From a virus (taxonomy: Duplodnaviria > Heunggongvirae > Uroviricota > Caudoviricetes), in IMG/VR virus record IMGVR_UViG_2579778856_000001: 12,065 bases of DNA; one strand, 5' to 3'. The first letter of the stretch is position 1. Every line of letters starts with the position of its first letter. Shown piece after piece: positions 896-9,798 of this stretch. The translations under genes were made by a program, and so were the position numbers. The notes beneath the pieces are model-generated. The model saw only the letters and a program-made list of their open reading frames with translations, was not told where the DNA came from and ran no database searches.

Positions 896-1825
896 ATGAG
901 CAGGACAGCGTTGCGTCAGGTCGTGCCGGTGGTGCAAACCACCGTGTTCGATGCGTATATTGTCGGTCTGGCCCCCTCGGGACGGCGAGGTATCACCAGC
1001 CTGTTAAACCGCAGCGCCAGCATACTTAAACACGGTGCGGATGCAGCAGACTATCCGTGGGAACAACTTAACTACGCCGCCGTTGCCAAAGTGCGCGCGG
1101 CACTGCTGGATGACGGTTACGCCGTGTCATCGGTCAACATGGCGCTGTCAGCACTCCGGGGCGTAGCGCAGACGGCCTTTAACCTCAATTACATGGATGC
1201 CGAAACGCTGGCACGTATCCGGTCAGTTAAGCGCGTGAGCGGCGATGTCCAGCGCAAGGGAAGGGCGCTGGGCAGGCAGGAAATCCGGGTACTGATTCAG
1301 GCTGCAAAACAGCATCCGCAATCTGTACGGCGCTGTCGCGATGTCGCCATTGTGCTGATGCTTTGCGGAACGGGCCTGCGGGCCGGGGAACTGGTTAAAC
1401 TTGAGCGCCGGGACTATGACAACGGCATCCTGACGGTGAGGCAAGGGAAGGGGCGTAAATACCGTGAAATTCACGTGGCGGATGCGGTGGACAAGGCTAT
1501 TCGTGCGTGGCTGAAAGTTGGCGCAGACGAGGCTGACAGTGCGTTGTTTAGGCGAATTCAGCGCAGTGGTAAGGTCGCAAGCCAACCGCTGACTACGACC
1601 GGGTTAACGGGTATCCTGGCTGAGTTACAGCAAACGGCAGGTATAGCACGTTTTACCCCGCATGATATGCGGCGCACCTTCATCACCCGTTTGCTGGAGC
1701 AGGGCGTGGATATCAATACCGTCCGCCAGTTGGCAGGCCACAGCGACATATCCACGACGACGCGCTATGACTGTCGTGGTGATACTATGAAGATCAGTGC
1801 CAGCAAGCGCATCAGATGTTTTTAG
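896..1825 (+). CDS. Tyrosine site-specific recombinase / integrase (small, about 309 aa, XerD-like size)
   Basis: Catalytic-domain signatures are present: LRAGEL (Arg), GKGRKYREI (Lys), HDMRRTF (His-x-x-Arg), GHSDISTTTRY (His ... nucleophilic Tyr). ATG 896 preferred over the track's TTG 881. No N-terminal DUF4102/SAM-like extension typical of P4-type integrases. Confidence 0.85.
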   Translation: MSRTALRQVVPVVQTTVFDAYIVGLAPSGRRGITSLLNRSASILKHGADAADYPWEQLNYAAVAKVRAALLDDGYAVSSVNMALSALRGVAQTAFNLNYMDAETLARIRSVKRVSGDVQRKGRALGRQEIRVLIQAAKQHPQSVRRCRDVAIVLMLCGTGLRAGELVKLERRDYDNGILTVRQGKGRKYREIHVADAVDKAIRAWLKVGADEADSALFRRIQRSGKVASQPLTTTGLTGILAELQQTAGIARFTPHDMRRTFITRLLEQGVDINTVRQLAGHSDISTTTRYDCRGDTMKISASKRIRCF

Positions 1826-2426
1826 CAGTTGAGGCGTTGCCAGACTCGGTTTCAGTTTCATCTTCAGCACTCAACCGCGCGTACTTTTGATTCTGGATGT
1901 TAATTTGTGCATTGATATTTTCAGGCTGAAGCATCCACGCAACATCCTCACGCGCCCATTCTTTACCGTCAGAGAGTCGTTTTAACCGGGGTTTCCATAT
2001 TCCATACTCATTAAGTTTTTCTGCTACCGAAGCATATTTCTCACGATCTGACTCCCCCGTATGAAGCTTGTCAAAACGACCTTTTACAAGCTGGTAAACA
2101 GTATAGATTTCCAGTGCCTTAGGGGACCTGGCCGGGACTATCATGGGGTGTTCCTCCGGCCTATAAATCCCGTTTGGCTCTCCCTCATTGAGCAGGTCAT
2201 TAAACATGTGGTTCACGCAGGCACTCAGCACATCTGCCGCTTTCTCCGCAGCGAATTTATCCGGGCTAAAACCCGCTCCCGTCAGTTTCCGGGCAATCAG
2301 TGCCAGTTTTTGCCGGGTATCCCGTCCCAGATAAAGCTTCTTCTCCAGAAATTCAAAGACCTCGTTACTGCTTTTCCGTTCCCGGTGGCATCTGGCGTCA
2401 GCCTTGTTGCTTTGGTTACCAATCAT
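1812..2426 (-). CDS. Hypothetical protein (204 aa), convergent with the integrase and divergent from alpA; candidate island repressor or accessory gene (the position yfjH occupies in CP4-57)
   Basis: Long minus-strand ORF. The second ATG (2426) is preceded by GGAGGTGA with a 4-nt spacer (minus strand reads ATGGAGGTGACTATGATTGG). Predicted product MIGNQSNKADARCHRERKSSNEVFEFLEKKLYLGRD... is mostly helical and acidic at the C-terminus, with no domain I can name. Its 3' end overlaps the int stop by about 14 bp. Confidence 0.6.
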   Translation of the reverse strand: MIGNQSNKADARCHRERKSSNEVFEFLEKKLYLGRDTRQKLALIARKLTGAGFSPDKFAAEKAADVLSACVNHMFNDLLNEGEPNGIYRPEEHPMIVPARSPKALEIYTVYQLVKGRFDKLHTGESDREKYASVAEKLNEYGIWKPRLKRLSDGKEWAREDVAWMLQPENINAQINIQNQKYARLSAEDETETESGNASTAKNI

Positions 2427-2445
2427 AGTCACCTCCATGACAGTG

Positions 2446-3402: not shown

Positions 3403-4257
3403 ATGAACGATTCTTATTACTTCAGAACATCTGACCCGGATTACATTCGTCACGCACCGTCAATGCTTGAGATTTTAAGTAAAGCATTCCCCACTATTAT
3501 TACCCAGCAGGAAAGTGAGTATGAACTGCAGCGTCTTAACCATTTACTAAATAAACTGAAAGGCAGCAATCGCTGCTACAACATCATTGCTCAAAAACTA
3601 AGGCAGTGCAGAAACGGATCTCCATGCAACAGTCTTATATGCCCGCATTGCCAGCGGGAACGCATTCTGGCGCAACTGGCTATGTTGCATGTCTTGCCGG
3701 GGAATTCAGCAGAATACGTGGGAGTGGTCCTGTTTTTCAACAAGGATACGCAAACTCCGCCGCCATGGAAGAACATTGGGGCGCTCAGGGCGCAAATCGG
3801 TCGTTATAAGCAGAGGATAAGCCGGGTACTTAACCGCCTGGGGTACGCCGGTCCGGCCACAGGCACCTTCAGTATGATGCGACATATGCCTGATGGCCCA
3901 GAAGAGCGTATTTTCTGGGTTCCACAGTTGTGTTTGTTCCTGCCCAATGACAGTACGTTGATTAAGGGGCTAAAAGCGCATATGTCGCGAAGTGGTGGGG
4001 CATTCATTGATGCATCGACGCTTAACACACCAGTGATCGTGCTCAGGTATAAAGATCCCGCGAGACTGATTTCATGCGCCCTGAATCCAGTCTGGCACAC
4101 AGCAGATTACACACTGACTGATAAAGACGCTCTTGTTAAGTCAAGAATGGAGCTACTGAAAGGCCGGACACTGTTAAAAAGTCTGCTTACCCTGGACTCA
4201 CTCGGAACAGGTGTCGTTTCTTTTTCGTTTGGGCAACCCCCAGGGAAAGTGCACTGA
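3403..4257 (+). CDS. Hypothetical protein (284 aa) with cysteine cluster RQCRNGSPCNSLICPHCQRER; candidate replication/DNA-binding component of the alpA operon
   Basis: ATG 3403 preceded by AGGAATATTAA. Continuous 284-codon ORF in the same orientation as alpA. C-x5-C-x4-C-x2-C resembles a zinc-ribbon. No confident family assignment. Confidence 0.65.
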   Translation: MNDSYYFRTSDPDYIRHAPSMLEILSKAFPTIITQQESEYELQRLNHLLNKLKGSNRCYNIIAQKLRQCRNGSPCNSLICPHCQRERILAQLAMLHVLPGNSAEYVGVVLFFNKDTQTPPPWKNIGALRAQIGRYKQRISRVLNRLGYAGPATGTFSMMRHMPDGPEERIFWVPQLCLFLPNDSTLIKGLKAHMSRSGGAFIDASTLNTPVIVLRYKDPARLISCALNPVWHTADYTLTDKDALVKSRMELLKGRTLLKSLLTLDSLGTGVVSFSFGQPPGKVH

Positions 4258-4272
4258 TTTACCGGTAATGCA

Positions 4273-4404
4273 GCAACTGCAATGCACTTTTGCTGTTGAT
4301 TAAATTGCAGTGGAACGACGAATAACAGCGGCAACCACTGCATTTTCGTTGTTGTAAAACTGCAAAGCTTGCCAGTGATTTTGATGGCGCTGATGCACTT
4401 TAAC
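4273..4404. repeat. Iteron-like direct and inverted repeat cluster (candidate replication origin or regulator binding array)
   Basis: GCAACTGCAATGCACTTTTGCTGTTG (4273-4298), an inverted copy AATTGCAGTGG (4303-4313), GCAACCACTGCATTTTCGTTGTTG (4331-4354), AACTGCAAAG (4358-4367), TGATGCACTTTAAC (4391-4404). Core (A/C)ACTGCA(A/T)T recurs five times. A/T-rich TTTAAC patches follow. Confidence 0.45.
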
Positions 4405-4833
4405 ATTCCAACTGTCTCGATTTTAACGCAACCGTCTGTTTTCTGCAGGGGCTCACGGATGCCTCTGCACACCCGATCCTTACCATCAACTGACGAGTTA
4501 GCGCATCTGTGAGGGCTTTCTGTGTTTCTGTCAGTGAATATTCTACACACAATGGGGGGAGCGGTCAGCGAGCACCATTGCCATTGAGCGCAACGGAGAG
4601 CTTGGGGACATGCAGCACTACGGAGGCTTCATCTCCTTCTCATGTCATTAAACGATACGGCGAACGAGCGCAGCGAGTGAGGGAAGGCGTCAGCCTGAAC
4701 AGGGGGAAAGATTTGCGACCGGAGTGGAGCAAATCATGGGCGGAGCCCATCCTCGCGACTGGGGTTTTGACTTTCGAATTGCCCAGCGTTGAGTTTGGTT
4801 AATGTAGTGAGACGAGGATGCTGAGAGGGGACC

Positions 4834-6231
4834 GTGAGTACTGAAAAGGATTATCCAGTGAAGATCCCTAAGTGGGTTTATGACCGTATTACTGAAATAA
4901 CGGATTATGTCGTGGGGGATACGCAATGGGCTGTTACCCGGCGGCAGACAGTACGGTGGTTCCTGGCTCACATATGGCTGGAAACAGACGATGATGGCTG
5001 GACTATATGCACTGTCCGGGATATCCGTAGCAGCTATGCCAGTCTCCTGGGACAGTGTGAAATTAGTTACCAGGGGGAGTGCTTTATGTCCACGCTAACT
5101 GATTTCCTGCCGACACTTTCGGATATTGAATTTCGTGCAGGAAAAGCGAGCAAAGACCCGGAAAAGCGTAGAGCCAGTGCATGGCGGTTCAACCCCCTGC
5201 TGCCTGTGTGTGATGAGTCTGCCAGGGGTAAGTTAAATCTGGTTGACTTGGATACTGGTGAGTCTGTTAGTTTTAGAGCTCTGCTTCAGGGGAACGGGAA
5301 AGCTCCTGGGCATGCGATAGATGTAGAGAAACGCCAGACGGCCCTAAAACAAACGGAAAAGGACTTCTTGGCCAAAGTTGGGCGGGGGCGCATGAGTATA
5401 CAGTTTGTGAAGGAATTGCGTAGCCGTGAGCCGGATCACTATTACCGCGCAGGAATACGCAGCCTTAACCATCTCTACAATGGCAGGATTGAGGGACAAT
5501 ATGTCACTTACGACCATCATTATCGTCTGACGTTTGGAGGGCGGTATTATGATCAAGCTTTCCAGAATCTGCCCAATGAGTTCAAAGCTAAATTTCGGAC
5601 CGGGTTACTCAACTATGACATCGAAGCGTGCAATCTGGCCTGTCTGAACCATCTGTTCAGACAGTATGACGTCGATTATCGTGTGAAGTCATCGATATAT
5701 AAAACCATGATGGAACATACCGGGCTGACCCGTAAACAGTGCAAACAGATGGTCCATACCACCACCTACAGAATTGGGCGTGTGACTATTGGTGTTAATG
5801 ATGGCCTTGGGGCAAAAGTGTATGGATGGTGCGGTAACAGCAAAAAAAAGGCGCTAAAGATTTTGCGTTGGTGGAACCGTTATATCAGTCCATTGAAATC
5901 TGCGCTTGAGTCATTGCTGGAACGTGTGCATGGCGCACACCGCAAGAGTTGTTCATCACCGCGTAACTATCACAGGTACGCTAATGAAGTCGGATTAATA
6001 CTGGATCTTAATAGTGAGGTGTATCAGCGTGAAAAGACTCACCATCATCAATATGCGCGGAATAAGGCACTGTTGGCGTTTATGATCTGTGGTGTGGAGC
6101 AGGCGTATATCCGTGAGGTTGTCAGTATGAACCCTGGTCGTGTCTGCATGCTGGATCATGATGGGGTAGTGGCAACGGGCGCGCTTTCACTACCGGACTG
6201 GCGTGGTTTCACGATGAAAGTGAAGGACTAG
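4834..6231 (+). CDS. Hypothetical protein (465 aa) occupying the position of yfjI in CP4-57; carries motifs reminiscent of right-hand (PolA/T7-like) polymerase motifs A, B and C
   Basis: GTG 4834 is the first start after the in-frame TGA at 4822, with GAGAGGGG 3 nt upstream. Motif-like segments: LLNYDIEACNLACLNHL (aa 258-274), RKQCKQMVHTTTYRIG (aa 300-315, R-x3-K-x7-Y) and MLDHDG (aa 439-444). Spacings of about 42 and 139 aa are similar to Klenow's D705 / K758 / D882. Whether this is a real polymerase fold is unverified. Confidence 0.7.
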   Translation: MSTEKDYPVKIPKWVYDRITEITDYVVGDTQWAVTRRQTVRWFLAHIWLETDDDGWTICTVRDIRSSYASLLGQCEISYQGECFMSTLTDFLPTLSDIEFRAGKASKDPEKRRASAWRFNPLLPVCDESARGKLNLVDLDTGESVSFRALLQGNGKAPGHAIDVEKRQTALKQTEKDFLAKVGRGRMSIQFVKELRSREPDHYYRAGIRSLNHLYNGRIEGQYVTYDHHYRLTFGGRYYDQAFQNLPNEFKAKFRTGLLNYDIEACNLACLNHLFRQYDVDYRVKSSIYKTMMEHTGLTRKQCKQMVHTTTYRIGRVTIGVNDGLGAKVYGWCGNSKKKALKILRWWNRYISPLKSALESLLERVHGAHRKSCSSPRNYHRYANEVGLILDLNSEVYQREKTHHHQYARNKALLAFMICGVEQAYIREVVSMNPGRVCMLDHDGVVATGALSLPDWRGFTMKVKD

Positions 6232-6355: not shown

Positions 6356-7050
6356 TGTGAGTTCAACGGGTCGATGCAACGCTGTCCCTAATCAAGGGGG
6401 ACGTTGCCATGAAACGAAGAACTCGTATTAACTACACGCCAGAGCAAAAGGTGATTATTTGGGACAGATATAAGCAAGGTGATTCCCTGCATGATATCCC
6501 CCAGAATGTTCGACAGATTTCACTCTACTATCATGCCTACAATCCACCAGGCCGGTGGCTACCGTCCTCCCGTGCGAAAGCGGCACCGGTTAGCGTTTTC
6601 GCTTGATGAAAAAGAGGAGATATCCAGAGGACTGGTAGCAAAACGCATCATCAGGGACATCGCTGCTAAATTATCAATAGCTCCCTCAACGATTAGCCGC
6701 GAGATCAGGAGGCACGGCGGTGCAAAACAATACCGTGCAGCAAAAGCCGATCCTGCTGCGTGGGAAAATGCTCTGAGACCAAAACCTTGCAAGCTAATTG
6801 AAAGCCCCACATTGTGTAAAATCATTGCAGAGAAGATGCATCAGGACTGGTCGCCGGAACAAATTGGCGGTTGGCTAAAACGCTGTTATCCCGATAATCA
6901 GGAAATGCATGTGTCACATGAAATGATTTATAAAACGCTTTTTATACCAACCCGGGGAGCTTTAAAAAAAGAGCTGCAGCAATGCCTCAGAAGCGGAAGA
7001 GTAGTGCGTAGATCCAAAACCTCATCACTTAAAGTAAACAGAGATACATT
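6356..7050 (+). mobile_element. IS30-family insertion sequence remnant (left IR plus the 5' two-thirds of the transposase gene; 3' end deleted)
   Basis: 6356-6380 TGTGAGTTCAACGGGTCGATGCAAC resembles the IS30 left terminal IR (TGTAGATTCAATTGGTCAACGCAAC, from memory). The transposase start lies about 53 bp inside, as in IS30. Homology to the IS30 transposase stops near aa ...KVNRDT (about 7048), well before the DDE domain. Confidence 0.7.
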
Positions 7051-7090
7051 CTGGTCACGAATGCCCGGTTGTTCGTGCTTTGCGTTTTAA
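6409..7090 (+). pseudogene. IS30-family transposase, frameshifted (in the C5 run near 6500-6505) and C-terminally truncated
   Basis: Frame 1 (6409..) MKRRTRINYTPEQKVIIWDRYKQGDSLHDI matches the IS30 N-terminus pattern MRRTFTAEEKASVFELWKNGTGFSEI. Frame 2 (from about 6489) ...RMFDRFHSTIMPTIHQAGGYRPPVRKRHRLAFSLDEKEEISRGL...WSPEQIGGWLKR...YKTLF... matches the IS30 HTH region (...ERKRAVAHLTLSEREEIRAGL...WSPEQISGWLRR...YKTLY). The switch between frames occurs at atcCCCCCag. The last about 13 codons (FWSRMPGCSCFAF) are non-homologous read-through. Confidence 0.75.
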
Positions 7091-7227
7091 TCGCATTTTA
7101 CAGTTTCTGCCTGCGTGCAGAGGTTGATGGTATTTTCTGAAAAAGCGGCTCGCTTTGCTAATGCATATGGCACAAATACAACAGTTTGTGTCATTCTGAC
7201 CCATCTTTATACCGCGACGGTGGAAAC

Positions 7228-9798
7228 ATGGATGAGCTGCTAACCCTTGGCTGCATTGCTTTATTCTTCGCACTGGTGGTGGTTCCCATCCTCGCGATTA
7301 TCGCGCTCAGCCGCAGCACGGCTGTTCGTTCTGAGCTGGCGACCCTGCGTCGCCGGGTGGAGGTGCTTGAGCAGCGCGGTGTGACTGAAGCACCCGCCAC
7401 AGTGGTAACAACTGTGCCGCAGAGTGTTTCGCAGATGGTTGTGCCTGTTGAAACGTCTTCGCCTGCGGTTAACATCGTGCTGTCGGAGCCTGTGGCTGAT
7501 GTCACGCCTGAGTCCGTTGACCCCTGGCGTCCACAACCGAAGCCGCAAAACGAGGCGCTACCCACACCAGCGGTCGAACAATCTTCCGCTTTTGGTGGGG
7601 TGATGTCGTCCCTGGTGCGCTGGTTTATGCAGGGCAACCCGCTGGCAAAGCTGGGTATTCTGCTTCTCTTCCTTGGCTTCTCCTTCCTGCTGCGTTATAC
7701 GGTTGAACACTCCCTGTTCCCGCTTGAGCTACGTCTGGTGGCGACTTCGCTGTTTGCGATTGCCCTGCTGGTAGTGGGCTGGCGATTGCGGCATAAACAG
7801 CTGGTTTATGCGCTGATCATACAGGGTGGAGCTACGGGGACGCTCTATCTCACCGTTTTTGGCGCATTCTGGCTCTGGCAGATGCTGCCGATGACGCTGG
7901 CGTTTGCATTACTGGTGGCGATTTGCGCGGCGAGCGTGGGACTGGCGATTATGCAAAAAGCGCTCAGCCTCGCGATGCTGGCAAGTATCGGTGGCTATCT
8001 GGCACCGCTGTTGCTTTCCACCGGCGGCGGTAGTCATGTGGCGCTCTTCTCTTTCTACCTTCTGCTTTCCGTCGGTATTCTCGCCATCAGCATCTGGCAA
8101 CACTGGCGCGAGCTTAATCTGCTTGGCCTGTTATTTACCTTTGGTATCGGCGGTCTTTGGGGACTCGACGGCTATCGATCAGAGTATTACCTGAGCAGTC
8201 AGCTTTTCCTGATAGCCAATACGATCATTTTTGGTGTGCTGAGCGTGGCGCTATCGCTACGAGCACAGGAGAAAGGTAAGCAGATTATTGATGGCGTGCT
8301 GTTGTTTGCATCGCCGCTGGTCGGTTTTGGCATGCAGTACGCCATAACCCGGCATATGGAATATGGTCCGGCGCTTAGCGCGCTGGGTTACGGCGGTTTC
8401 TATCTGGCGTTAGCATGGCTTGCATTGCGTCGCTATCCCTCTTTGGGGAGGCCGCTGGTGCTGGCGGCGCTGGCGCTGGGTGGGGCATTTACCACGCTCG
8501 CTATCCCACTGGCGCTTTCGGCCCGCTGGACGGCGATGGCCTGGGCGCTGGAAGGTCTCGGCATCCTCTGGCTGGGCGTGCAACAGCAGCAGCGGCGTAT
8601 GAGCTATAGCGGCACTGCGCTGCTGGTGCTGGCAGTGTGCAGCGCGCTGTGGGCGCAGATGAACGGGATGAGCGCGCTTTCTCTGGTGCTAATCTTTGCC
8701 GTACTCAGCCTCAGCTGGCTGGCTGCCGCCTGGCTGTGGCGCAATATTCAGTTGCAGGGTAGTTGGGTTCTGTTGGCTGGCGGTTTGATCTTCTGGATAA
8801 TCGCGCTCATTGGGGCATCGCAACTGGTGCTGAAAAAGGACTCGCTGGTGCTGTCTGGCGTGCTGGCGTTAATGGCGATATCGGTCTGGGGCTGGCGGAT
8901 TGTCTCTGGTCGTCTGGCCTGGTGGGAGCTGGATGTCAGCAAATGGTTGCTGTGGCCGACGATGCTGGTGATGCTGCTGTCTCAAATTTCACAACATGAG
9001 ATTTTTGCTGCGGGCTGGCAGAATCTGGCCTGGTGTCTGGCGTTACCCGCTGCGGGGGCATTGCTCTGGCGTGATGCTGAGACGTTGCCGCCGCGCCTCT
9101 CCAGACTGGCGCACCTTTCACTCTTCTGGATGATTCTGCTCGCGCTGGCGGCGGAGCTATTCTGGTTTGCGCAAGATCTGCCATGGGGCATGGCGGCGTG
9201 GGGCTCCGGCCTGATGATGGCCGCGGGGGGCCTGCTCATCTTTCTCGTTCATGAGGCGGTTCATCGTCAGCTATGGCCATTCCGAAGCTGGCCCGCACTC
9301 TACGCTTCTCAGGCGATGATACCGGTAGCTGCGGTATTGGTTGTTCTGCTAGTACTGACGAATTTGCAGGATGGCGTAGTTTATCGCCAGACCTGGCTGC
9401 CGCTGGTGAATCCACTGGAGGAGGGGGCCGCTTTTGCGCTACTGGGACTCATTGTATTTTATCGCGTTTCGCAGCGCTTTTTCCCGGTGCAGATTTCGGT
9501 ATGCCGTCCCTGGCCGCTCATTGCACTGCTGGCGCTTAGCTTCTGGTGGCTGAATGGCATCCTGCTGCGCGCATTGGCCTGGTACGGCGAAGTGCCCTGG
9601 AGCGCGGAAACACTGTGGCATTCGCGGCTGATTCAGACCTGTTTTGCCCTGTTCTGGATGCTGGCGGCATTAGTGGTGATGCTACGTGCGACCCGGCGTT
9701 GCTCACGTCGCGAATGGCTTTGTGGATCCGTATTGTTAGGGATTGTTATTGTGAAACTGATGTTGGTAGACAGTGCGCGTGGCGGCGGCCTGGCATGA
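7228..9798 (+). CDS. Large polytopic inner-membrane protein (856 aa). Architecture: N-terminal TM + coiled-coil + Pro-rich linker + more than 20 TM helices, as in DUF2339-family proteins. Probably chromosomal backbone
   Basis: ATG 7228 is preceded by GGTGGAAAC. The track's 7186 start lacks an RBS. Uninterrupted 870-codon frame. Very hydrophobic, L/A/W-rich repeats of predicted TM segments. Visibly higher GC than the flanking island genes. Family call is from recalled architecture only. Confidence 0.75.
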   Translation: MDELLTLGCIALFFALVVVPILAIIALSRSTAVRSELATLRRRVEVLEQRGVTEAPATVVTTVPQSVSQMVVPVETSSPAVNIVLSEPVADVTPESVDPWRPQPKPQNEALPTPAVEQSSAFGGVMSSLVRWFMQGNPLAKLGILLLFLGFSFLLRYTVEHSLFPLELRLVATSLFAIALLVVGWRLRHKQLVYALIIQGGATGTLYLTVFGAFWLWQMLPMTLAFALLVAICAASVGLAIMQKALSLAMLASIGGYLAPLLLSTGGGSHVALFSFYLLLSVGILAISIWQHWRELNLLGLLFTFGIGGLWGLDGYRSEYYLSSQLFLIANTIIFGVLSVALSLRAQEKGKQIIDGVLLFASPLVGFGMQYAITRHMEYGPALSALGYGGFYLALAWLALRRYPSLGRPLVLAALALGGAFTTLAIPLALSARWTAMAWALEGLGILWLGVQQQQRRMSYSGTALLVLAVCSALWAQMNGMSALSLVLIFAVLSLSWLAAAWLWRNIQLQGSWVLLAGGLIFWIIALIGASQLVLKKDSLVLSGVLALMAISVWGWRIVSGRLAWWELDVSKWLLWPTMLVMLLSQISQHEIFAAGWQNLAWCLALPAAGALLWRDAETLPPRLSRLAHLSLFWMILLALAAELFWFAQDLPWGMAAWGSGLMMAAGGLLIFLVHEAVHRQLWPFRSWPALYASQAMIPVAAVLVVLLVLTNLQDGVVYRQTWLPLVNPLEEGAAFALLGLIVFYRVSQRFFPVQISVCRPWPLIALLALSFWWLNGILLRALAWYGEVPWSAETLWHSRLIQTCFALFWMLAALVVMLRATRRCSRREWLCGSVLLGIVIVKLMLVDSARGGGLA

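Follow-up and report, generated by a model that had tools for sequence, protein, structure and literature searches.

A conserved hairpin array beside a predicted family-A-fold polymerase gene: a candidate single-strand-initiation region in an Escherichia coli chromosomal island

In ColE1-type plasmids, extension by Pol I uncovers the ssiA site (n'-pas), at which the PriA primosome is loaded (PMC3167613; PMC3640518). Mini-hairpins of the form GCGNAGC, which are exceptionally stable and poorly bound by SSB, are found at the G4 origin, at the ssiA of RSF1010 and at the promoter of the N4 virion RNA polymerase, vRNAP (PMC13037366). PICMI satellites, which have large non-coding regions, can excise and replicate with no more than int, a gene that overlaps int, AlpA and a priming enzyme (PMC10803314). 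Here, we analyzed a non-coding region, positions 4440-4833 of a 12,065-nucleotide stretch of DNA (IMG/VR record IMGVR_UViG_2579778856_000001, hereafter the window), and compared it with these systems. By analogy, we propose that it may well be the single-strand-initiation part of the replication origin of the element, a reading that we hold tentatively and place a little short of an even chance.

The DNA of the window is an island of the E. coli chromosome that occurs in about 580 of the 5426 complete genomes of this species, ST131-named strains included. Over positions 3900-5400, sequence identity is 99-100% in 507 complete genomes (several with ST131 in their name) and 80-95% in about 87 others. 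The genes of the island are arranged as follows.

881-1825: tyrosine recombinase gene (int)
1812-2438, minus strand: 208-aa ORF, convergent with the recombinase gene and overlapping its end by 14 nt
2649-2846: AlpA-type HTH gene
Between the AlpA-type gene and the 284-aa ORF: ORF of 155-171 aa
3403-4257, plus strand: 284-aa ORF
4834-6231, plus strand: 465-aa ORF (true start perhaps GTG 4858), whose product has an N-terminal part with weak winged-helix-like matches and a predicted family-A polymerase-fold domain; the cargo lies 3' of it

The order and type of the core genes, the large non-coding regions, the defence cargo and the int-overlapping ORF (1812-2438, here convergent with int) resemble those of PICMI and other AlpA-regulated satellites. 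The island, which is known here from its sequence, differs from PICMI in that its replication or priming gene appears to encode a family-A-fold polymerase and not a primase or Pri-Rep. Its core stays constant among relatives while the cargo changes: the 465-aa gene belongs to the core, with int and alpA, and the cargo that follows it comprises, in different relatives, Hachiman, type I restriction, SIR2, SNF2/MmeI-type, OLD plus UvrD, or CdiA toxin genes. The replication mode of the island bears on the spread of this anti-phage defence cargo. We also observed that the 208-aa ORF is kept in all relatives, at 175-223 aa; its overlap with the recombinase gene may be compared with the int-overlapping gene of PICMI satellites, which is required for excision.

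A conserved non-coding region between two core genes

The original prediction had seen no credible gene at 4440-4833, and this was borne out, as about 580 E. coli genomes have no RefSeq feature there. ORF 4509-4802 has no match in Pfam, PHROGs, NCBIfam or PADLOC; in relatives, its frame is disrupted both by indels some 10-40 nt long and by 1-nt differences in the length of a G-run (5, 6 or 7 G). We conclude that 4440-4833 is non-coding. The intergenic region as a whole spans 4258-4833 and may reach 4857, because the family-conserved N-terminus (M/V)KIPKW of the 465-aa protein starts at GTG 4858. The start assigned earlier to this gene, GTG 4834, is uncertain, GTG 4858 being the better family fit; the RefSeq start of the ST131 gene is ATG 5086 (381 aa), and 89%-identical orthologues start near GTG 4834 (462 aa). 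The G-rich strings quoted in the original prediction were found at 4554-4564, 4679-4689 and 4700-4710, but its description of the stretch as noticeably GC- and G-rich overstated a mild bias that is not marked relative to the window: among 394-nt segments, it ranks at the 73rd percentile for GC (54.8%, compared to 51.1% in the window) and at the 81st for G (31.5%), with a GC skew between +0.18 and +0.30.

Relatives were gathered via the 465-aa protein, which yielded 78 clusters, and all organism-named matches were Enterobacterales. The loci compared were L002-L011 and L143-L154, with L011 and L143-L147 forming a distant group (group 2). A gap of 350-700 bp lies upstream of the 465-aa gene in 17 of the 17 loci for which upstream sequence was retrieved. 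Three non-coding blocks are 72-100% identical where the 465-aa gene is 65-72% identical at the DNA level, and 4440-4833 is better conserved than the neighboring genes. Conservation in related elements had been named beforehand as a test; both the sequence and the hairpin structure described below proved to be conserved. The features of the region and of its upstream flank are the following.

4250-4470, unstranded: ten TGCA-core repeats (iterons, consensus approximately A-A-n-TGCA-c-T-T-T), ten against 1.25 expected, Poisson P = 2e-7
4540-4590, 4659-4697 and 4710-4750: conserved non-coding blocks
4540-4559, plus strand: near-invariant 14-nt box ATTCTACACACAAT, then a G-run (5-7 G); the best-conserved stretch across the family
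4550-4580, plus strand: hairpin H1, stem CAATGG/CCATTG around the module GA-GC-GGTCA-GC-GA (4559-4571); DNA fold z = -1.7
4587-4655, plus strand: locally self-complementary spacer that differs among relatives in length (about 25-69 nt) and sequence
4662-4681, plus strand: 20-mer GAACGAGCGCAGCGAGTGAG, matching a ColE1-type segment at the ssiA position
4685-4696, plus strand: short hairpin AGGC-GTCA-GCCT, with two pairs changed on both sides and the loop GTAA in several relatives
4710-4735, plus strand: hairpin H5, stem GATTTGC/GCAAATC around GA-CC-GGA-G(T)G-GA
4736-4750, plus strand: hairpin H6, ATGGGC-GGA-GCCCAT, with U-A to G-C changes and G.U variants
4751-4773, plus strand: weak terminator-like hairpin and T-run, in the window's lineage only (absent in L007 and L146)

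The box is kept in all but two of 19 loci, one with a single substitution and the other, L143, with a degenerate copy. It occurs once in the window and is retained in the distant group, where the first hairpin is also kept and the 20-mer, the 284-aa gene and most other blocks are absent; the ssiA-like module that includes the 20-mer is therefore not essential to the island family. T7-group promoters have a 23-bp consensus that is A+T-rich from -17 to -13, reads CACTATA from -7 to -1 and starts with G. The box with its G-run (ATTCTACACACAAT followed by GGGGGG, and in L143 TTTTACTACTCACTAT followed by GGGG) may recall these promoters, at one base shorter than the consensus (compare TAATACGACTCACTATAGGG with TTTTACTACTCACTATGGGG of L143, about 5800-5825). 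The neighboring 465-aa protein is nearer to DNA polymerases than to RNA polymerases.

The iterons noticed in the original prediction were confirmed. They begin within the last bases of the 284-aa gene and run into the first part of 4440-4833, most of them lying upstream of 4440, and the segment 4258-4439 has a GC content of 42.9% against 51.1% for the window. Clustered direct repeats thus lie beside an A+T-richer segment, as in an iteron-type origin. Iteron origins such as P4 ori/crr and PICI ori likewise combine a cluster of short repeats with a lower-GC segment adjoining the replication gene, whereas a hairpin array 3' of the iterons is not typical of them. The TGCA repeats are conserved in the close (group-1) relatives, and the distant group has the palindrome TTTTCCATTTTTAAAAATGGAAAA instead. 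No DnaA box or known initiator was identified. In the 284-aa protein, a Cys4 motif, CRNxxPCxSxxCxHC, precedes (V)TLTFN-like and W.PQLxLLLP motifs, both of which fall on predicted strands, and the secondary-structure elements are predicted in the order beta-alpha-beta-beta-alpha-beta. Searches returned no family or structure match and no relatives of known function for this protein, and its AF2 model (pLDDT 40) was unusable; neither it nor the 465-aa protein has a match in Pfam, PHROGs, NCBIfam or PADLOC. The motifs of the 284-aa protein loosely recall motifs 1 and 2 of rolling-circle Rep proteins, but without the conserved His or Tyr.

Hairpins of the plus strand and recurrence of the 20-mer

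The suggestion that the stretch could form structure was not supported for the stretch as a whole, since RNA folding of the entire region showed no gain over shuffles on either strand (z = -0.19 for the plus strand and +0.58 for the minus strand), but it was supported locally: H5 and H6 jointly reach z = -3.9 in DNA folding. RNAalifold and a hand-drawn model concur on H1, the short hairpin at 4685-4696, H5 and H6. Across 15 sequences, 98% of the cells of the proposed hairpins pair and five pairs change on both sides, including an A-U to U-A compensatory change in H1 (three sequences) and a G-C to A-U change in H5 (7 of 15). The observed level of covariation was reached by none of 500 shuffles, and slid registers fall to about 30% pairing; the covariance across homologous elements that the original prediction had asked about is thus present. 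As most pairs never vary, this support is real but modest, and the hairpin sequence is conserved beyond the needs of pairing.

Two hairpin tips, at 4559-4571 and 4666-4676, carry the module GA-GC-G(N1-3)A-GC-GA, and H5 provides a third, bulged module of GA tandem and GNA loop. In the 251-nt core there are two copies of the pattern GA-NN-G(N1-3)A-N'N'-GA, where 0.0245 would be expected, and none of 2000 shuffles contained two. Separately, ten bases of H6, GGGCGGAGCC (4738-4747), are identical to part of a G-rich stretch 5' of a ColE1-type origin (CAGGGGGGCGGAGCCTATGG, L155 829-848), although the order of elements differs from that in ColE1. In several lineages (L007-L009, L148, L011, L144 and L146), the ribosome-binding site just 5' of the polymerase start adjoins a conserved nested hairpin whose tip reads GCGC-C(N)(N)AA-GCGC; this hairpin is absent from the window's lineage.

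We propose, by analogy, that the 20-mer reads as a hairpin formed by G.A/A.G, A-T, C-G, G.A/A.G, G-C and C-G pairs and closed by a GCA triloop, that is, by two tandem G.A pairs and four Watson-Crick pairs. Since the GCA triloop sits on G-C/C-G, the 20-mer contains the mini-hairpin GCGCAGC, and the heptamer looked for (GCGNAGC / GCGNNAGC) is indeed present at 4669-4675. In viral copies of the motif the loop base is A, C, G or T and the remainder is fixed; a C-to-T variant of the 20-mer gives a T.G pair on the plus strand only. Nearest-neighbor DNA folding predicts neither the 20-mer hairpin (z = +0.47) nor the corresponding ColE1 hairpin, under a standard model that does not account for sheared G.A pairs or GNA loops. 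For the proposed fold we rely on the published behavior of GCGNAGC mini-hairpins cited above and on the known properties of G.A tandems. The mini-hairpins of the G4 origin, of RSF1010 ssiA (RepB') and of the N4 early promoters (T7-like virion RNA polymerase) differ from this one in lacking flanking tandem G.A pairs. Within E. coli genomes, a 31-mer spanning the motif is confined to this island, with one copy in each genome.

Positions 4661-4684 of the window match a ColE1-like plasmid at 22 of 24 bases (CGAACGAGCGCAGCGAGTGAGGGA against CGACCGAGCGCAGCGAGTGAGTGA), with a score of 38 against 20.3 +/- 2.3 for shuffles (0 of 200). The largest group of partial plasmid matches comprises 36 Enterobacter records, largely 2.5-kb mobilizable plasmids, and the one examined is ColE1-like. 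In the ColE1-like plasmid L155, RNAI lies at 337-438 on the minus strand, and from this position the RNA/DNA switch is predicted near 883. The matching segment, CCGAACGACCGAGCGCAGCGAGTGAGTGAGCGAGGAAGCGG at 964-1004, lies on the RNAII-sense (displaced) strand, approximately 85-125 nt past the predicted switch. From this position, which is that of ssiA in ColE1-type plasmids (in pBR322, the H-strand factor Y site; compare CCGAACGACCGAGCGCAGCGAGTCAGTGAGCGAGGAAGCGG), we take the segment to be the probable ssiA.

Besides the shared core bases, the island and the ColE1/pMB1 ssiA (n'-pas) have in common a GA-NN periodicity around a GCGCAGC triloop hairpin and, if synthesis in the island runs rightwards, a location on the displaced strand. 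Both also lie beside a region served by a family-A polymerase, which is Pol I for ColE1 and would be the 465-aa protein in the island. They differ in that the plasmid version has one extra GA-NN unit per arm, and in that the island lacks the RNAI/RNAII system, encodes its own polymerase-like protein and has two or three modules plus iterons. If the comparison is valid, a classic plasmid signal occurs in a chromosomal island.

The motif GAACGAGCGNAGCGAGTGAG, the 20-mer with its loop base left free, is common to 55 viral contigs (L088-L142) of 33-65% GC whose flanks are unrelated to the window; by our rough estimate, about 0.5 would be expected by chance for 19 fixed bases in viral contigs. The flanks pair across the 20-mer in 30 of 43 distinct viral contexts, compared to 44% in a mixed-flank control, and in some AT-rich phages the stem is lengthened by a third G.A tandem. 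Among the neighbors sampled were helicase, primase, invertase, HNH endonuclease, transposase, integrase and terminase genes. In Clostridium phage CS229P1, which is phi29-like, a near-copy of the 20-mer (the first 17 bases, GAACGAGCGCAGCGAGC) together with a second GA module is found in both inverted terminal repeats (L157 60-99 and 16333-16380). The terminal repeats of phi29-like phages are replication origins. A less restrictive pattern, CTACACANNATGGGGGG, matched 75 viral contigs, which we judged compatible with chance for 15 fixed bases, and a literature search for a 12-mer returned vector-derived sequences only.

In one set of related phage contigs (L090, L095, L096, L099, L110, L116, L134 and L138; 45-53% GC), the motif lies about 7 nt past a TTGACA-N17-TAnnnT promoter, and other viral copies are flanked by G-runs. 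Because the motif follows promoters in some phages, the antitermination RNA of HK022 put was considered; it was set aside, as the put paper (an alignment of only ten put sequences) gave no sequence link. A tie between the 20-mer and the 465-aa polymerase family was likewise rejected, with no homologue in the stretches of about 1-15 kb that were examined around the motif in the 55 viral contigs.

An island without capsid genes would need a site for packaging by a helper phage, and in some viral contigs the 20-mer lies just 5' of a large-terminase gene or near a contig end, as a packaging signal (a pac or cos mimic) might. We consider this very improbable. By a rough count, a terminase gene lies within 4 kb in about 6 of the 43 distinct contexts, which is near the roughly 20% that we would expect by chance, and the ColE1 similarity has no connection with packaging. 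In addition, the distance to the contig end varies within one phage type (13, 251, 304, 1436 and 1637 nt), which points away from fixed genome ends and towards breaks in the assembly. Such breaks at a stable hairpin may account for the enrichment of the motif near contig ends.

The G.U and T.G variants of the hairpins fit the plus strand only, and the plus strand is therefore the folded one. As all hairpins lie on the mRNA-sense strand, a role as RNA fits them equally well. The most direct such role, and one that the original prediction had raised, is a structured 5' leader of the polymerase mRNA, whose hairpins would act on the downstream gene and the cargo through translation, stability or read-through. 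The region does lie between co-oriented genes of an apparent alpA operon, the conserved GCGC-CNNAA-GCGC hairpin abuts the ribosome-binding site in several lineages, and the window's lineage has the weak terminator-like element at 4751-4773. That element is not conserved, however, and the leader would have to be reconciled with loop sequences that are invariant well past pairing needs, with a 20-mer that recurs in DNA contexts, namely a replication signal of plasmids and the terminal repeats of a phage, with a whole-region fold no better than shuffles, and with the lack of an Rfam family match. We therefore rate a leader as unlikely, though as the strongest rival of the origin reading, which fits better.

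An independent small RNA gene, for example a P4-like immunity RNA, is highly improbable in our estimation. Conserved hairpins and, in the window's lineage, a short T-run after H6 would suit such a gene, but the T-run is lineage-specific, and in four lineages (the window, L151, L146 and L007) we found no plus-strand sigma-70 promoter or conserved terminator. The Rfam scan proposed at the outset gave no match at the gathering score in the window; on 4200-4900 at E <= 10 the sole match was a chance snoRNA (E = 0.42), and no match was obtained at the 20-mer motif in 13 viral loci. The analogy to P4 RNA-based immunity drawn in the original prediction found no support in the sequence.

The 465-aa protein and a proposed route of initiation

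AlphaFold modeled the 465-aa protein with a mean pLDDT of 85.7, and the Foldseek matches of the model are Taq, Bst, Klenow and Pol theta, with a best E of 2.5e-5. We are confident, on the strength of this model, that the protein has a family-A polymerase fold; its N-terminal part is possibly winged-helix-like. It contains the motifs GGRYYDQAFQNLP, NYDIxxC (motif A), RKxCK...Y..G (motif B) and MLDHDG (motif C), which we read as family-A motifs, GGRYYDQAFQNLP presumably corresponding to TGRLSSxxPNLQNIP. Glu is absent both from the steric-gate position and after HD, and the missing steric-gate Glu suggests relaxed sugar selectivity, as judged from sequence.

A profile search of 1.84 billion representatives returned only 72 relatives of the 465-aa protein, the distant ones sharing its C-terminal domain, and a sequence-profile search of the polymerase family returned no solved structure. 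Of the distant relatives tested, 10 of 10 match PHROG 30690 (function unknown) and 0 of 10 match Pfam. In the comparison with viral structures, the top matches are uncharacterized proteins from jumbo phages of Dickeya and Erwinia, and family-A DNA polymerases come next. One distant homologue adjoins a 5'-3' exonuclease and ThyX, that is, a phage replication neighborhood, and the motif was not found in the 736-bp region upstream of one distant homologue. By these sequence comparisons, the 465-aa protein belongs to a small unannotated family.

Since the non-coding region always adjoins the polymerase gene, and since the islands carry Hachiman, SIR2 and restriction systems, we considered that the region might supply the polymerase-like protein with its own dedicated nucleic acid, in a defence system similar to retrons or DRTs, its RNA or hairpins acting as template or primer for a product other than island DNA. 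The relaxed sugar selectivity suggested by the motifs would agree with this. Nevertheless, such a partnership is improbable. The polymerase gene is part of the conserved core with int and alpA while the cargo varies, no PADLOC or RVT match was obtained, and the predicted fold is that of family A and not, as in retrons and DRTs, that of a reverse transcriptase. Its relatives, moreover, fall in PHROG 30690 or, in the one case above, in a phage replication neighborhood.

Our preferred reading, a single-strand-initiation region, draws on the conservation of the blocks beyond that of the genes, the covariation, the module count, the ColE1 match, the recurrence of the motif in viruses including the phi29-like phage, the properties of mini-hairpins, the iterons and the PICMI-like layout. 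Among the three roles put forward in the original prediction, that of a primer or origin fits best, with hairpins of the single-strand-initiation type, a near-copy of the segment at the ColE1 ssiA position, iterons on the 5' side and a polymerase-fold gene on the 3' side. From this we infer an origin function, a direction of synthesis and a hairpin-reading protein. The region would act as DNA, as the cis-acting replication-initiation region of a small integrative AlpA-regulated island that usually carries phage-defence cargo. After excision, synthesis or transcription would enter at the iterons (4250-4470) and proceed rightwards, displacing the G-rich plus strand. Once displaced, this strand could fold up compactly, with hairpins at 4550-4580, 4662-4681 and 4710-4750 and their tips made of tandem G.A pairs and a G-N-A loop. 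Being very stable and poorly bound by SSB, such mini-hairpins may serve as single-strand initiation signals that load a priming machine, most likely the host PriA primosome, as at ColE1 ssiA.

Alternatively, the priming machine may be the island's own polymerase, in the way that the N4 virion RNA polymerase and RSF1010 RepB' read hairpins of this kind; in contrast to N4-type readers, the 465-aa protein resembles DNA polymerases more than RNA polymerases, as judged from sequence and model. In either case, the role of Pol I in ColE1 would here fall to the 465-aa family-A-fold polymerase, and the box with its G-run (4540-4559) might mark a start or recognition site. Taken together, the elements look like an initiation module of ColE1 type supplied with a polymerase of its own.

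In a broader form of the proposal, which we regard as possible but rather doubtful, the region and the 465-aa protein would constitute a self-contained replicon of a new type. A winged-helix and family-A polymerase would recognize the box and start or extend synthesis, and mini-hairpins of GA tandems and GNA loops would be a general single-strand priming signal, the 20-mer being so used in phages of very different hosts, including in the terminal repeats of protein-primed phages. If true, unannotated family-A-fold polymerases (PHROG 30690 and the jumbo-phage relatives) would gain a candidate role in starting replication, and a 20-base hairpin motif of unrelated phages would become a testable general priming signal.

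Two further observations concern the island itself. The cargo of the window consists of an IS30-family transposase remnant (6479-7090), followed by DUF2339 and, as annotated in RefSeq, a frameshifted DUF3999 gene (7186-9798); in relatives, recognized defence systems occupy the same cargo position. In strain AVS0935 (one genome), a 1253-bp insert of ISEc52, which is IS3-like, lies at 4476-4478, between the iterons and the box, with a 3-bp ATC duplication, and an ISEc52-interrupted match to the same 1.5-kb query was found in four further genomes.
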